Source: an uncultured Acidobacteriota bacterium (GTDB lineage: Bacteria > Acidobacteriota > Thermoanaerobaculia > Gp7-AA8). From it: a stretch of DNA of 64,000 bases. Below are positions 29,853 to 37,015 of this stretch, in pieces (the first letter of the stretch is position 1; each line of letters begins with the position of its first letter). The notes beneath the pieces were generated by a model, which saw only the letters and a list, made by a program, of their open reading frames with translations, ran no database searches and was not told the DNA's origin. A program made the position numbers and the translations under genes. The DNA lies in NCBI GenBank assembly GCA_963822445.1, contig CAWGHO010000001.1:64001-128000 (forward strand), given 5' to 3'.

Positions 29853-30676
29853 TCCTGCGCTCGAACCTCGATCCGGCCTTCGCGTACACGGACGTCGAAG
29901 ACCCGCTCGGGAAAGACGGCCGGACCGTCGAGCACGCGGCCATCCTTCAGGCAGAACCGCGAGCCATGCCAGGGGCAGCGGATGCTGTCGTCCTCGATCG
30001 TTCCTTCGGAGAGCGGCCCGCCGAGGTGGGTGCATGTGTCGCGAAGCGCATGGATTGAATCGCCCTGTTTCACGAGCACGATGGCTACGTCGTCGGCCGT
30101 GACGAACTTCTTCGGCGTGCCCTGCTCCGCCGTCGCGGTGTGATCCACCCCGATCTGCTCGCCGTACGTGAGATGGCCTCCGACGTACGCGGAAGACATC
30201 GCCAGACCAAAGGCAGTCATGGAAAGGGCGATGCCCTTAGATCGCGACCGGCCGCGCACCATGAGCGAGATTGCATAGAGGCCGGTGGCCGCCAGATTCA
30301 TGACGCCGTGCGCGAGACCTATCCGTTTCGCGCGGCCGTCGGTCTCGGACCAATCGGTAGCGCCGGCGATGGCTGCGCCGACCGCGCCGACCAGTCCGAT
30401 CTTGATCGCAGTCTCGGAGAATCCCCGGTTGCGTCGCACACCGGCGATCTCCAACGCATCGAGAATCGCGGCCAGCGTCCAGGCGCCGACGGGAAGCTCG
30501 ATCAGCGCGGGATGCAGCGGATGTCCGAGCGCTTTTCCATGGAGGAAGTTCTTGGCTTCGCGACCGGCAGCGCCCGCTGACGCGAACAGCGATCGAATCG
30601 CTTCCTGCAGCGGCGTGGCGAGAGCATCGAGTGATTCCTGATCGCCAAGGGTACGTACGAGTCGTTCGGCAGGCAT
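29849..30676 (-). CDS. DUF2231 membrane domain + Rieske 2Fe-2S protein
   Basis: GHPLHPAL, GATDWS; CTHLGGPL...CPWHGSRF. Confidence 0.88.
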   Translation of the reverse strand: MPAERLVRTLGDQESLDALATPLQEAIRSLFASAGAAGREAKNFLHGKALGHPLHPALIELPVGAWTLAAILDALEIAGVRRNRGFSETAIKIGLVGAVGAAIAGATDWSETDGRAKRIGLAHGVMNLAATGLYAISLMVRGRSRSKGIALSMTAFGLAMSSAYVGGHLTYGEQIGVDHTATAEQGTPKKFVTADDVAIVLVKQGDSIHALRDTCTHLGGPLSEGTIEDDSIRCPWHGSRFCLKDGRVLDGPAVFPERVFDVRVREGRIEVRAQE

Positions 30677-30909
30677 TCCGACCTCTCCGTCGCGCGGCTC
30701 CTGGCCGGCCCGGGATCATCGGGTGCAAATTGCGAGCGCAATTTTCCAACTGTCACGGTTGGAAATGGGTTTTTCGCCGCGCGTCGCGAGAGCGGCAGAG
30801 CGGTAAAAGCACGCTGAGCCATCGGCTCGCTCGCGAAGCGTGCGAAGGCGGGACGCTCGCGGCGCGCGTGCGGTTGTCGCGCGGATCACGCCTCGATGCG
30901 CCCACGATC

Positions 30910-31041
30910 GCGAAGCTGACGCTTCCGCTCAAGGAAGCTACGACACTTCTTCATCTTCTTGCGAAAGAGAACGTTACTGCTGCGAGCGTGTTTCCGAGTT
31001 ACGACGGGGTGATGGCGGCGATTAATGAAAATCGTTGGTAA
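30910..31041 (+). pseudogene. Possible C-terminal fragment of an FRG-domain-associated protein
   Basis: KLTLP...LLHLLAKENVTAASVFPSYDG resembles FRG protein C-termini; no plausible N-terminus upstream. Confidence 0.4.
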
Positions 31042-31089
31042 AGAGCAGACAGCCGCCTAAATACTAGTTCTATGAGAGCGATCGTCAAG

Positions 31090-31470
31090 GGCGGTTCCCT
31101 TCTTTGCTGATCGTTTTTTGTTTCCCCTGACGATCAGCTCCGACCGACCCGAAGAGGACGATCGCGAGCGTTTGCGGGCGGGCGGTACAGTCGGCCGCTG
31201 ACTCATTTCGTGCTGCTCAGAGGATCGTTTAGAAGCAAGTGCAAGCGTTGGGCGATCGCATGGAACGTCGACCATAGTTCTATCTGAGACTCGCGCACGC
31301 TGTGGCGCGGCCATGACGCTTGTTCGGGTCATCCGAGGGGCCTAGAGTTAGGCGAGTGCCTCAGCGGGACTGAGAGCCACCAGGCGGACTAGTATCTCCG
31401 AGACTCACCCTCGATCCGTTGCCTCTCGGATCAGCGAGCAGCCGAGTGACCCCACTCGCGCCGATCCGAC
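31090..31470 (-). ncRNA. Candidate bridge/seek RNA of the IS110 element (boundaries approximate)
   Basis: Structured region with segments matching both target flanks (31388-95, 31346-53) and the IS ends (31312-16, 31277-83). Confidence 0.7.
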
Positions 31471-31472
31471 GG

Positions 31473-32539
31473 CTATGTCGCTTGCATCGCTACTTTCGTT
31501 GGATCCCAGAGCTCTCCTTTCTTCCAGAGGTGTAGCATGATCGCGGCGATTTTTCTGGCCAGGGTGACCTTCGCGAGTTCCGGCCGGACACCATTCGCAA
31601 CGCAACGCTGGTAAGCGTCCTGAAGCGGTCCCGCTTTGAGTGTCGCCGCGTTGGCCGCTCCCTTGAACACGCTCTGAGAAGGCGGTTGTGGTTCCGATTC
31701 AGACCGCGCGTGGCGACCACGTGCCGGCGTCGGCGCAGCACACCACCAGAGAACTCGTGTTCACCGCTTGAGCGCGTTACCACGGCCAGACCGCAGTACG
31801 GCCACAGCTGCCGTTTCGTGCGGAACCGATGAGGGGTGACGATGATGGCCAGCAGGCAAGCCACACGAACGGGACCAAAGAATGGGATCGACTGCAGAAT
31901 GGTCCAACCATAACGCCGCGGTGCTTCAGCGACCATTGCCGCCTTCGCCCGCCGTCTGAGCTGTTTCAGTGTGTCGAGCTCGGTCAACAACTGCTCAGCG
32001 CGAAAGCGCGCACCGGTTGACTCGATCCGCCCTAACCACTCAACGCGGTTCTCGTCGCTGAAGACCGAGCGACCCGGTGTTCGAATGCCTCGTGCGCGGA
32101 ACAACGCTTTGATCCGCAGCATCGTCCGAGTGGCATCGTCGACCAGGTTCATGTAGCAGCGAACCAGCTCCTTCAGGGTGAGCGTGTCGTGCAGCGCGTG
32201 GAACACCGGCGTGAGCGCACCCAGCCGAAGCAGCTCCGACAGGTGGTCGGCATCCAGCTGATCACTTCTCTTCGACACCTCACTTCGGCCACGCGTACAG
32301 CACACCACCATTCTCTCGGCATGCGGCACGATCAGATCGTGCAGCCACTGCGCCTGTGTTCCTTCCTCGAGCGCCACCCGCACACGTGATCCGAGTCCTC
32401 TCACGAGATTCACGATCGCCGATCCCTCCGTCGGTATCGTGGCCCGCATTCGGATCGCGCCATCCTCGCCTCTGACACTCGCAACGATTGTTGCCTGGTG
32501 AACGTCGAGAGCGAGATACTGAATCGCCTGATGTTTCAT
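31473..32539 (-). CDS. IS110 DEDD transposase/recombinase; 1-nt frameshift near 31675
   Basis: LALDVHQ, ALEEG and SDQLDA (DEDD); YCGLAVVTRSSG; C-terminus VFKGAA...LARKIAAI continues in ORF 31473-31670. Confidence 0.9.
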
Positions 32540-32679
32540 GGCAGCCGCTCCTTCCTTTCGTTTGTTGTTTCCAGCTCCAAACTTACAGGAAGGAGCGTGC
32601 TCTCATCATGCGTTAGGCCGACCGCACAGAACGGCAAAAACCGTCTCGATGTAGAATTCGTCCGAGGTCGCAATCACTG

Positions 32680-35355
32680 ATGGGACGATATGCAGATCAA
32701 ATCGCAGAGTTGGAGCTTGTGCGTCAAATCGATCGGAATGTTGGCGTCGACGGCATCTCACGCTCGGACGCGCAGAAGTTATCAGCCCTCGTTATGGAAG
32801 TCGCCGACACCGCCGGCCCGCTCCTGAGTCGCATACCTGTTGTCTTTAAACAGTATACAGAGCATGACCTGGGTCATTCGCGTAATCTGATCGATCTGAT
32901 GGGACGATTCATTCCACCGGACACGCTCCGCAATCTGAATGCGCTGGAGCTTTCGTTGCTAGTTATCGCCGCTCTTCTGCACGATATTGGCATGTTCGTC
33001 ACTGACGCAGAGAAATCTGATGTTCTTTTGTCGGACGCGTTCAGGGCGTTTGTGGCGGCTTCCCCCGAGCGGTTCCGAGTTCTAGAAGCATCATCATTGC
33101 TACCCAACCCGCGGCAGGCCATCGAAGATGCGGCACTGGCCGAGTTCTTTAGAAAACGCCATCCCGAGCGCGCGAAGGCTATCATTCAGAGTCTTTTTGC
33201 TGAACGTCTCGTATTCGCCGATGTAGAACTCGCTCCCCTCGTCGGCGACATCTGTGAGAGTCACGGTTGGCCCGTATACACAAGTGATGATCCTCGGCAG
33301 CCCGAGCGAGCAATCGCGAAGTCGCTGAAACGCATGCAGCCTGTAGGCGGATTACCGTTCAACCCCCAATACACCGCCTGTTGTCTGCGACTCGCCGATA
33401 TTCTCGACTTCGACCGCTCACGTACGCCGTTGGCATTACTTCGCACCATAACGGACGAGGTTTCTCAGCGCGAGTGGCTCAAGCATCTGCAAATCACTGG
33501 TTGGAGCATCCGAGCACACGAGATAGAATTCTACGCAGCGTGCCAGCACCCGGCTCATTATGTCGCGATTATGGAGTTTCTAGAATTGGTCGACCATGAA
33601 TTGCGCGACTGCCGACGACTAATCATGCGTGAAGCGCCGGCCGAAATTTCTGCGAAGTATGCTTTCCATCTGCCGCCCGCCGTCGAGCGAATGTACGTTG
33701 AGATGGCGGACAAGAGCTTCGCCGCCGGCGGATTTCGCTTCCGGCTCGATTACGAACGAATATTCAAGCTGCTTATGGATAGAAGCCTCTACCCTGACGC
33801 TAGCTTGTTCTTGCGGGAGTTGCTGCAAAATTCATTAGATGCCTGTAGGGTGCGTCGTGCAATGATTGAGGCTGAGGGTGCAGCTCAATATTATACGCCG
33901 TGTATTGTCATATCTGTAGGAGCGCGCACTTCGTCAGGTACGATCCTGAGCTTTCAGGACAACGGTATCGGAATGTCGGAAGACATTGTCAGAAACTACT
34001 TTGTGCAGATTGGGCGGAGTTACTACCGCTCGGGAGAGTTTAACGCGGTCCGGCATCTACTCGCGGATGCGGGGATTGAGATTGAAGCGACATCCCAGTT
34101 CGGAATCGGCTTCTTGTCCTGTTTCATGGTTGCGGACCACATTGAAATTGAGACATTTAGAGTCGGTGAGGTGCCGTTACGTGTCACAATCGAGGGGCCA
34201 ACGAAGTATTTTCTGGTTCGTCGTCTCGCTGCACCACCGCCGCCCCAGATTGCCGCTGTCGCCAAGACGTTAGACGAGGACGGCCCTCCGAAGTTCGTCG
34301 GCACGCGCGTCACGATTCGTATGCGTCCTGACGTGGATATTGACGTGCAGGCGCTTTTGGGCCGGTTTGCAGCGAACGTAGAGTGTGACGTCATCATTAA
34401 AGAAAAGAATCGGCGCGTGGTTCAACAGGCATGGATGTGGGAACGCCTGGCGGTTTTGCCGTCGGCGCTGCCCACTTCAGTAGGTCGTTCGGCCTATGGT
34501 GACCTCGTACCCGAGCCCCAGGCTGTCCCTTGGGCGCCTAAGTTTGATGACGTCCTGATGGCGATCGATGTTCCTCTCGACGACACACAATTGCCTGGCC
34601 GCCTGAGAGGCAAGGCGTGGTTCTGGTTTATCAGAGGGCACGACGGCGGTCCAACACCTTCTCGCGGCTTTCTGCGGATCGGAGCTGACATTCGCCCGGA
34701 GGGCTTGCCGAAGATTGCATCATCGTTTATCGACACAATCGCCAAGTATCTCGATGACTATATCGAACAAGACAAACTCGATCTCACTGAAATATCGAGG
34801 CTAATCGGTTCGGGCGCAGGCGCAACTCTAGCGGAATGGTGGGAACAAAGGAAACCTGAACAACGTCGAGCTCTTCTTGCGTGGTACATCCATCCTATTA
34901 AACGTGATACGAAGTGGTTCCAGAGCGGCGATGCCTTGCGAGCACTACTGTCGCGCGATGACGCGTGGCTGAAGCATCCTGTCAGCTATACCGACGGAGT
35001 TGGAAACACCTTCCCACAGAGTATTGCACTACACGGTGTCGAGGTCACAGCGGGCATTACGCGCTGGGACGCGATGGTGGGCTTTGCGCGGAGACTACCG
35101 ATCCTTAAATTCATGGCGGGTTTCCGCGTCGATGTTAGGCGCGATGCACCGACCCCGGCCGCCAATCGATTATTTTTTGATCCGCAGGAGGGAGCCAAGA
35201 TTGCAGTTCCATTGCTTAACGCATACCTACGGCGTGCCCAACACCTTGTCGAAACACATCCGGACGATGCGGATTGGGCCGTTTGGTACTCTAGCTTTAT
35301 AGACGCAACAGAACGGTCCGCTTATGCGTCACAACTCACATATCGGACGGCCTAA
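32680..35355 (+). CDS. HD-CE domain + HSP90-like (GHKL) ATPase; probable gene cassette
   Basis: YTEHDLGHS, LHDIGM, ESHG and LRLADILD; LRELLQNSLDA, DNGIGM and FGIGFLSCFMV. Confidence 0.85.
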   Translation: MGRYADQIAELELVRQIDRNVGVDGISRSDAQKLSALVMEVADTAGPLLSRIPVVFKQYTEHDLGHSRNLIDLMGRFIPPDTLRNLNALELSLLVIAALLHDIGMFVTDAEKSDVLLSDAFRAFVAASPERFRVLEASSLLPNPRQAIEDAALAEFFRKRHPERAKAIIQSLFAERLVFADVELAPLVGDICESHGWPVYTSDDPRQPERAIAKSLKRMQPVGGLPFNPQYTACCLRLADILDFDRSRTPLALLRTITDEVSQREWLKHLQITGWSIRAHEIEFYAACQHPAHYVAIMEFLELVDHELRDCRRLIMREAPAEISAKYAFHLPPAVERMYVEMADKSFAAGGFRFRLDYERIFKLLMDRSLYPDASLFLRELLQNSLDACRVRRAMIEAEGAAQYYTPCIVISVGARTSSGTILSFQDNGIGMSEDIVRNYFVQIGRSYYRSGEFNAVRHLLADAGIEIEATSQFGIGFLSCFMVADHIEIETFRVGEVPLRVTIEGPTKYFLVRRLAAPPPPQIAAVAKTLDEDGPPKFVGTRVTIRMRPDVDIDVQALLGRFAANVECDVIIKEKNRRVVQQAWMWERLAVLPSALPTSVGRSAYGDLVPEPQAVPWAPKFDDVLMAIDVPLDDTQLPGRLRGKAWFWFIRGHDGGPTPSRGFLRIGADIRPEGLPKIASSFIDTIAKYLDDYIEQDKLDLTEISRLIGSGAGATLAEWWEQRKPEQRRALLAWYIHPIKRDTKWFQSGDALRALLSRDDAWLKHPVSYTDGVGNTFPQSIALHGVEVTAGITRWDAMVGFARRLPILKFMAGFRVDVRRDAPTPAANRLFFDPQEGAKIAVPLLNAYLRRAQHLVETHPDDADWAVWYSSFIDATERSAYASQLTYRTA

Positions 35356-35547
35356 CTACTGCCCGAAGCTGTCGCGGCCCGGCTTCGGTCCCGGCGGCCG
35401 AGCCGCCTACATTTTCGCCGGCGTGACGGCGTCACAGCGGTTGCAGTTCGGCAGGCGTTGCGTACACCTTCTTGCCGGCAACCGCTGCGCCGCTTGGGCT
35501 TCGGCACGCGGGCCCTGCCCACGCAGCTTAGGCGATAGACGTTGGGC
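35350..35547 (+). other. attC-like integron recombination site (198 bp)
   Basis: GCCTAAC (overlaps the stop codon)...GCCCGAAGCTG pairs with CAGCTTAGGC...GTTGGGC; one extra base in the left L box; internal hairpins. Confidence 0.75.
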
Positions 35548-36695: not shown

Positions 36696-36720
36696 GCCCA
36701 ACTACTGCCAGGAGCTGTCG
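36696..36720 (+). other. Left arm of a second attC-like site (right arm not found)
   Basis: GCCCAACTACTGCCAGGAGCTGTCG matches 35350-35374 at 22/25 positions. Confidence 0.65.
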
Positions 36721-37015
36721 GCGGGGTTCACCGCTCCCGGCGCTGAGGCGCCTCTTGTCTCCCCGAGACGCACGGCGCCGCATGCATCCGGGGCCTCGCC
36801 ACCGCTGAGGCGACGAATGTCAGACGCACGCAGGTCGGCGTGACTAACTATTTGGATAGCGGCCTTCTTGGTGGCAAACAAATCGGCGCCCCTGTTTGAA
36901 TGACTTACAGATGCAGGCAGGTCCTAGGGCTCCCCAAGAGAGCATCCGAATGCGCACTACCTTTGTGATCAACACAACTTTGAGCGGTGCGTGGTGGTCA
37001 CATCACGATCTGATG

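Follow-up and report, generated by a model that had tools for sequence, protein, structure and literature searches.

The insertion sequence (IS) at positions 31069-32611 (minus strand) of a 64,000-nucleotide stretch of DNA from an uncultured Acidobacteriota bacterium (GenBank assembly GCA_963822445.1, contig CAWGHO010000001.1; the whole stretch is referred to here as the window) is interpreted, with a probability of roughly 0.87, as a decayed, RNA-guided element of the IS1111 type, equipped with a two-module seekRNA or bridge RNA and belonging to a clade that lives in integron recombination sites. The element is 1543 bp long and is flanked by a repeated GT. With a slash marking the boundary, direct reading of the sequence gives ...CGCCTAAATACTA-GT/TCTATGAGAGC... 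on the left (in a longer reading, GCCGCCTAAATACTA-GT/TCTATGAGAGCGATC) and ...GCTCTCATCATGC/GT-TAGGC on the right (GTGCTCTCATCATGC/GT-TAGGCCGACC). The left core dinucleotide (31067-31068) reads AC on the transposase strand, as it does at both junctions in every relative, and the second copy of the core is contained in GTTAGGC (32612-32618, plus strand), an R-box or core site that opens the first cassette of a cassette array. These boundaries, and the single site restored upon removal of the IS with one GT, had been put forward in an original prediction made from the sequence alone; direct reading bears out both, and the same ends recur in relatives.

The relatives were gathered from a scan of one genome per species, in which 188 stretches encode related transposases; of these, the top 80 were retained and make up 79 loci with identities of 52-68%, L013 reaching 68% over its 285 matched residues. 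Most belong to metagenome-assembled genomes of Thermoanaerobaculia, other Acidobacteriota, and Gemmatimonadota. Read in the transposase orientation, nearly all of their left flanks end in RYYYAAC, mostly GCCTAAC, and all of their right ends run ...CTYTCATAGA, then AC, then a variable flank.

Target Guides Covary with the Flanks

Two short segments of the non-coding region 3' of the transposase gene match the insertion site. Guide 1, ATACTAGT (31388-31395, minus strand), is complementary to the core plus the right flank, ACTAGTAT, and forms the 5' side of the loop of the first RNA module, ending in GT. Guide 2, GCCTAAC (31347-31353, minus strand), forms the 3' side of the same loop and is identical to the left flank plus core, which is also the integron inverse core RYYYAAC. 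The two guides thus match opposite target strands on either side of the shared core. All four strings singled out by the original prediction lie where it had placed them in the non-coding region. The first, ATACTAGT, is found twice in the 64 kb, once in the flank and once in the non-coding region, against 0.06 occurrences expected, with 1 of 100 shuffles reaching two. The second, GCCTAACT, is found twice against 0.36 expected (3 of 100 shuffles reach two), the second copy lying in the attC at 35350 and not in the flank. The guide within this string covaries with the flanks. The extra T of the string was considered as a guide base and rejected, the relatives having AACC, AACT, or AACG there while their flanks mostly continue with G.

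The check proposed with the prediction, namely covariation of these segments with the flanks among homologous copies, was carried out on some 60 relatives from Acidobacteriota and Gemmatimonadota, and both target segments covary. Guide 1 agrees with the reverse complement of the right flank at a mean of 7.55 of 10 positions over 56 distinct pairs, against 4.76 in 2000 shuffles (largest 5.41), and uninterrupted runs of seven or more are present in 25 of the 56 pairs, against a shuffled mean of 1.0 and a maximum of 7. For guide 2, compared with left-flank positions -7 to -3 in 60 pairs, 44 match at all five positions (shuffled mean 13.3, largest 21). This agreement extends to left flanks departing from GCCTA, 21 of 33 of which are matched 5/5 by the guide of their own element, as with GGATGAC, GCGAAAC, TCCCTAC, and ATCAAAC. 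Since both segments covary with the flanks across relatives, their match to the target is far beyond chance.

The scaffold of the first module in the window copy is closest to that of the protein's own relatives (74% vs 67.5%) and follows the protein tree, and the guide of the window copy is common to the distant copies L055 and L066; the guide therefore evolves apart from its scaffold. Import of the target module from the Gemmatimonadota group was considered and ruled out on the same scaffold comparison. The loose end of one contig from a soil sequencing run has different flanks and a different guide 1, which fits the long attC type of the window's own genome. Tandem partial duplications of the right IS end and non-coding region stand beside full copies in two relatives, at 3990-4279 of L016 and 4002-4089 of L023.

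Conserved Predicted RNA Structure of the Non-Coding Region

An RNAalifold consensus on an alignment of 57 distinct copies of the non-coding region contains two internal-loop modules. Its 30 pairs are formed in 97.8% of cells, and 18 of them have changed on both sides among the 57 sequences. The covariation score is 0.286 against 0.139 for shuffled alignments, with none of 500 shuffles reaching 0.286, and falls to 0.077 or less when the partners are slid by one to three columns. G-U pairs are found at two positions in 54 of the 57 sequences; these conserved pairs are compatible with the transposase strand alone.

The target-binding module (31333-31414, minus strand) comprises an outer stem, a short helix AGUCU/AGG, an internal loop with the two target guides, and an inner hairpin with a CAGU loop (CAGT in the DNA). 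The donor-binding module (31269-31331, minus strand) is built likewise, with an outer stem TGACC/GGTCG, an internal loop, and an inner hairpin. The hairpin and stem named by the original prediction are present in the sequence, but the helices that carry compensatory changes are shifted from them, being TCGAGGG/CCCTCGG and GCCTGG/CTGAGGC. Its reading of the region as a bridge or seek RNA is upheld in architecture by the covarying modules and by target guides that track the flanks, while the fold of the whole non-coding region alone, a check it had also suggested, gave a z of -1.48, not significant against shuffles.

Candidate Donor Guides

The donor module contains ATAGAAC (31277-31283, minus strand), identical to the right IS end plus core and invariant in 57 of 57 copies. 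The proposal that this segment is a guide stands in that it matches the IS end, is invariant, and fits a guide, but it offers no variation that could covary. The other proposed donor segment, TCATG, failed to hold up: it is not conserved, and the family has CAGG there as part of a helix. By reading, GCGT (31316-31319, minus strand), the complement of the core and the first two nucleotides of the left end, is a candidate for the second donor guide.

Transposase, IS Ends, and Family Assignment

The DEDD transposase gene (31473-32539, minus strand) is split between two frames. A 349-codon minus-strand frame (32539-31490) carries the DEDD_Tnp_IS110 domain (PF01548, 29.7 bits against a cut-off of 29) and the Transposase_20 domain (PF02371, 44.3 bits, cut-off 21.3), and the conserved C-terminus resumes in the frame 31670-31473. 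NF033542 scored 112.1 bits, under its cut-off of 140, with a query that ended at the frameshift. Relative to close copies, the gene is one base short at 31674/31675. Since copies on contigs from four of four soil runs, mostly 90-99% alike, have an extra base after 31674, a 1-nt deletion in the window copy, or an assembly error, breaks the gene. A sequence search of the PDB returned no matches, and no sequence similarity to any solved structure was detected.

Published marks of IS1111 elements are a non-coding region 3' of the gene and subterminal inverted repeats (PMC11187229, PMC11208160). The element has some 400 nt of non-coding DNA 3' of the transposase gene (from the stop codon at 31473 to the end at 31069) and about 70 nt upstream. 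Its subterminal repeats, ATGAGAGC (right end; 31072-31079, plus strand; TGARAGC kept in relatives) and GCTCTCAT (left end; 32599-32606, plus strand; kept in relatives), in the transposase orientation, are 8 bp long and lie 3 and 5 nt from the IS ends, within the 7-17 bp range of the IS1111 criteria used for comparison. The same criteria ask for a transposase 330-350 aa long that bears a G..P....S/T-G motif. Joined, the two frames of the frameshifted gene encode about 345 aa, in which GLAVVTRSSG is read, lacking a proline at the usual place. The domains, the 3' non-coding region, and the subterminal repeats support the earlier assignment to the IS110 family, IS1111 type.

The IS ends common to the relatives are, in the transposase orientation, GCATRTTGARAGC on the left and CTYTCATAGA+AC on the right. 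Within the right end, TTGACG (31083-31088, minus strand) is conserved as CCCTTGAC in relatives, and the conserved TTGAC is probably the -35 element of a junction promoter in the circular form of the IS. In the window copy, this TTGACG together with TAGTAT of the flank forms a sigma-70-like outward promoter (31061-31088, minus strand; 9/12). The IS has a copy number of one in its own genome, which holds no further copies; three unrelated IS110-family genes there are 25% identical.

Integron Sites as Targets of the Clade

The right flanks of many relatives run on as attC hairpins ending in ...GTTAGGC about 90-140 nt away. A strict attC test devised for this analysis is passed by 12 of 61 distinct right flanks, against 2 of 61 shuffled ones. 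Six further relatives match the 197-201-bp attC type of the genome that contains the window, L007 and L012 in one polarity and L009, L010, L013, and L016 in the other; since these matches are split over both polarities, both ends of the attC hairpin are used. Other copies lie beside integrase genes. In L055, 78 nt separate the IS from where a full-length integron integrase (TIGR02249, 427.5 bits) has its stop codon; L044 is, by reading only, 216 nt from an integrase-like open reading frame (ORF); and L136 has an integrase remnant 70-336 nt right of the IS end, a stretch of about 270 nt that brings together residues 18-60 and 277-336 of the L055 integrase. On this comparison of sequences, the clade inhabits the sites where integrons recombine; its copies occupy one or the other end of the attC hairpin, and some lie beside integrase genes.

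A metagenome scan for the right end joined to the flank ACTAGTA returned 38 stretches, about 21 of which are family members by reading of the end context. Among the 11 members of this set, selected by its flank, that hold the RNA region, guide 1 ends in CTAGT in nine, three of them with TACTAGT. Most of the sites read GCCTAAC/TAGTATTAG[GA]CTGC..GCAGCCTAA and form one end of a hairpin roughly 52 nt long. Of 15 distinct sites, 12 fold when a relaxed GTT partner is allowed and 3 when GTTRRRY is required. In four AT-rich metagenome contigs (L106, L113, L118, and L124), the 18-nt search pattern stands in an unrelated conserved context, TAATTTCTAAAGCT.TCATAGAACTAGTAGGATATTAAATAA, which may be another repeated element.

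Cassette orientation in the relatives was also sought from neighbouring ORFs (42 vs 5 of 57) and from GC3-GC2 (41 vs 18 of 59). Both favour an antisense IS, and both were set aside, the method being noisy in GC-rich DNA and having called L012 antisense where attC homology gives the sense polarity.

Points Against the Interpretation and the Proposed Mechanism

Several results weigh against an RNA-guided, integron-dwelling element. Guide-1 runs are shorter than seven in 31 of the 56 pairs, some of which agree poorly, and L066 and L068 have the same guide as the window copy, yet lie in an ordinary attC that matches it at 3 of 10 positions. The 79 loci, as the best 80 of 188, are a non-random sample whose members are not mutually independent, and the tandem partial copies in L016 and L023 were retained in the guide counts. 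The strict attC test confirms only its 12 of 61 target sites. ATAGAAC and the right end are both invariant, so the donor side yields no covariation signal, and neither TCATG nor GCGT tracks the GC or GG left ends in relatives. Rfam gave no match at E up to 1 in 2701 nt. The window copy itself is probably inactive, because its recombinase is frameshifted and it is single in its genome.

The guide RNA is predicted from DNA comparison; none of the sequencing runs listed as holding the stretch, all with small shares, is of RNA. This, along with the failure of the whole-region fold to outdo shuffles, would suit the reading that the internal matches work at the DNA level, for instance as protein-bound copies of the target, or arose by chance, with no guide RNA involved. 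Such a reading is nonetheless very improbable in view of the covariation of guides with flanks, the compensatory changes in the helices, and the strand-specific G-U pairs, and the same architecture is experimentally an RNA in ISEc11, ISKpn4, ISPa11, and IS621 (PMC11187229, PMC11208160).

For the RNA-guided element thus favoured, the following mechanism is proposed. The transposase-strand region 3' of the DEDD recombinase gene would give rise to a seekRNA or bridge RNA made up of two modules, each with an internal loop. In the target loop, AUACUAGU on the 5' side would pair with the right flank on its top strand, the core AC included, and GCCUAAC on the 3' side, which equals the left flank plus core, would pair with the bottom strand; AUAGAAC in the donor module equals the right IS end plus core. 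By analogy with published work on IS1111 and IS110 elements, the RNA would be made, bind the recombinase, and direct insertion, the complex joining the circular IS junction to the target with strand exchange at the 2-nt core. Clade-wide, the 3' guide stays fixed on RYYYAAC, and the 5' guide differs according to the inner sequence of whichever attC or attI family is concerned. The window copy sits in GCCTAAA-TACTA-G/TTAGGC, where the integrase would cross over; by the same kind of analogy, the split site would be dead for the integrase.

The Interrupted Site of the Window Copy

The left half of the target consists, by reading, of an L-box-like GCCTAAA (31055-31061, plus strand) and a 5-nt spacer TACTA (31062-31066, plus strand), so that the joined site reads GCCTAAA, 5 nt, GTTAGGC, with the L box and the GTTRRRY R box of a simple site, as the original prediction of an integron-type target had it. 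The spacing in attI1 is N5. As published, the consensus of R'' is RYYYAAC and that of R' is GTTRRRY, recombination crosses over directly behind the first R' base, and attI1 has CCCTAAA as its L box (PMC12901181). The core GT of the IS overlaps the G/TT position described there, in agreement with the proposed insertion at the integrase crossover point. The claim that the site heads a cassette array also holds. The IS lies antisense to the cassettes, at the G/TTAGGC opening a two-cassette array. The ORF of the first cassette (891 aa; 32680-35355, plus strand) starts 62 nt after GTTAGGC, and its stop codon lies inside the R'' GCCTAAC of a 198-bp attC (35350-35547, plus strand), which shows the R''-L''...L'-R' hairpin and has the long type and polarity seen on contig C2 of the same genome. 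A second, degenerate attC (about 36696-36825, plus strand) starts with GCCCAAC and ends with GTCAGAC. Site-specific insertion into attC thus holds for the clade; the window copy has the array context and no complete attC at its insertion site.

Given this gap, the interrupted site may be the L'-R' end of a truncated or mini attC, an upstream cassette having once been present and the distal half of its attC lost, a credible reading if one short of even odds. It would account for the recurrence in metagenomes of the target GCCTAAC/TAGTATTAG[GA]C as the end of the hairpin of about 52 nt, by the relaxed (12/15) more than by the strict (3/15) partner, and for the absence of an integrase nearby. It would also agree with the P-loop-like ORF fragment upstream at 30631-31041. 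Against it, a strict and a relaxed search over 215 nt inward of the site gave no RYYYAAC or L'' partner, and GTTAGGC/GCCTAAC is found just four times in the window.

A second reading, possible at distinctly less than even odds, assigns the site, as an attI-type simple site, to a now decayed "reverse" integron, whose integrase and cassettes share one orientation; the sub-lineage with ...CTAGT guides would then be addressed to attI. The same arrangement recurs 78 nt (L055), 216 nt (L044, by reading only), and 70 nt (the L136 remnant) from the 3' end of an integrase, the L box resembles that of attI1 (PMC12901181), and the genome's own integron is of the reverse type. The attI-like character claimed by the original prediction is, however, not borne out by the surroundings: the integrase is on contig C2, and no integrase gene or remnant lies beside the site, the sole match to one in the window having an E of 0.036 and falling inside another gene. 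The guides of L044 and L055, in addition, match their own sites at only 5 and 8 of 10 positions, and most sites of the CTAGT guide type form hairpins and lie on contigs, 7-13 kb long, that hold no integrase.

It is quite unlikely that the two cassettes instead integrated at a secondary, attG-like position of the chromosome, with an L box mimicked by chance in the ordinary chromosomal DNA that forms the left half of the target. Synteny with genus relatives does end at about 30665-30713, just left of the array, and attG insertion has been published, as cited in PMC12901181. The left half nevertheless matches guide 1 over 8 contiguous bases and the TAGTAT context recurs at other integron sites, both unlikely for random DNA. 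No uninterrupted chromosomal site without cassettes was found in 124 genomes of the family. The empty site that the original prediction had suggested seeking in related genomes is also absent from the own genome, and its 15-mer from the same 124 genomes.

Relation to Known Systems

The mechanism and the attC lifestyle are already published: the attC-targeting IS1111 elements ISPa21, ISPst6, ISKpn4, and ISPa25 have been known since 2008-2009 (PMC11187229, PMC3001079), and for 93% of IS1111 elements a bridge RNA that has both a target loop and a donor loop is predicted (PMC11208160). The seekRNAs of the IS1111-attC group match both attC strands, the top-strand match lying 5' of the bottom-strand match, and those of ISKpn4 and ISPst6 likewise come from a 3' non-coding region with two short attC matches; the 82-nt target module described here is about the size of the 82-nt peak seekRNA of ISKpn4 (PMC11187229). 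That group is also found in cassette arrays, antisense to the cassettes (PMC3001079). It is known from clinical Proteobacteria, whereas the hosts here are soil Acidobacteriota and Gemmatimonadota, and it is described as inserting near the 5' end of attC (PMC3001079), whereas the present clade uses both ends as well as sites close to integrases. The window copy differs further in sitting at a GTTAGGC core without a full attC.

The best plasmid-borne matches to the transposase are IS110-family proteins at 22-30% identity, and the non-coding region matches no plasmid. Klebsiella, Escherichia, and Pseudomonas fell outside the ten commonest organisms matched in the plasmid search. The clade is remote, at 30% identity or less to any plasmid-borne relative, and these plasmid matches bear indirectly on a common origin with the ISPa21 and ISPst6 transposases.

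IS621, of the IS110 group, has a bridge RNA (Durrant et al. 2024, PMC11208160) that shares with the RNA predicted here two internal loops, for target and donor, each with two opposite-strand guides and a common 2-nt core, and natural programmability. The RNA region of the present element, in contrast, is located 3' of the gene in the right end, and the subterminal repeats are longer, as reported for IS1111 (PMC11208160). In ISEc11 and ISXne4, natural redirection is similarly achieved by swapping the target-detecting part of the seekRNA with the rest kept (PMC11187229), while here one guide stays on the integron core and the other varies among many attC families; ISSso6, a relative of ISEc11, is 22.7% identical to the transposase. 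Group IIC-attC introns are likewise attC-specialised mobile elements lying antisense to cassettes (PMC3001079), but they are retroelements with a ribozyme and a reverse transcriptase, nothing of which was found in the window.

New are the remote clade, one guide that has been reprogrammed in nature, and a sub-lineage that would target the junction of the first cassette; literature searches returned no report of an IS1111-type element aimed at attI. The range of attC-targeting, RNA-guided IS elements is extended from clinical Proteobacteria to the large chromosomal integrons of soil Acidobacteriota and Gemmatimonadota. With one guide constant and the other reprogrammed, the series of about 60 elements offers a useful natural resource for learning how IS1111-type bridge systems pair and which mismatches they tolerate. 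The result further suggests that an IS of this kind can split the junction where integrases cross over and may immobilise cassettes. A more far-reaching scenario, considered unlikely, is that a deep-branching soil lineage reached the integron site independently of the clinical IS1111-attC group, with one guide hard-wired to RYYYAAC and the other rewritten for each attC or attI family, and that the sub-lineage at the first-cassette junction blocks capture as an antagonist or regulator of integrons. If so, an IS at the integrase crossover would block cassette capture and freeze the array, and would be more than a passenger.

Neighbouring Features

The own genome holds a very large integron on contig C2 (2118113-2227000), whose integrase lies upstream of at least 87 attC-like intervals and points the same way as they do; at 197-201 bp, these intervals are unusually long. 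Clusters of attC without an integrase are found on contig C1 (at about 228 kb and about 1.228-1.232 Mb) and contig C3 (about 159 kb and about 1.33-1.357 Mb).

Within the window, the ORF at 30631-31041 (plus strand) has 136 codons and a P-loop-like SGKSTL, matches no family, and stops 13 nt short of the target site. Short stretches of it (30-65 nt, 79-93% identity) are also present in other genomes of the genus, and the ORF may represent a fragment of a gene or else an old cassette. The 891-aa protein of the first cassette carries HD-CE (178.6 bits) and an HSP90/MORC-like ATPase domain (HATPase_c_3), with a weak PADLOC match to the C-terminal part of DRT UG24 (E 1.4e-6), and the cassette may be defence-related.

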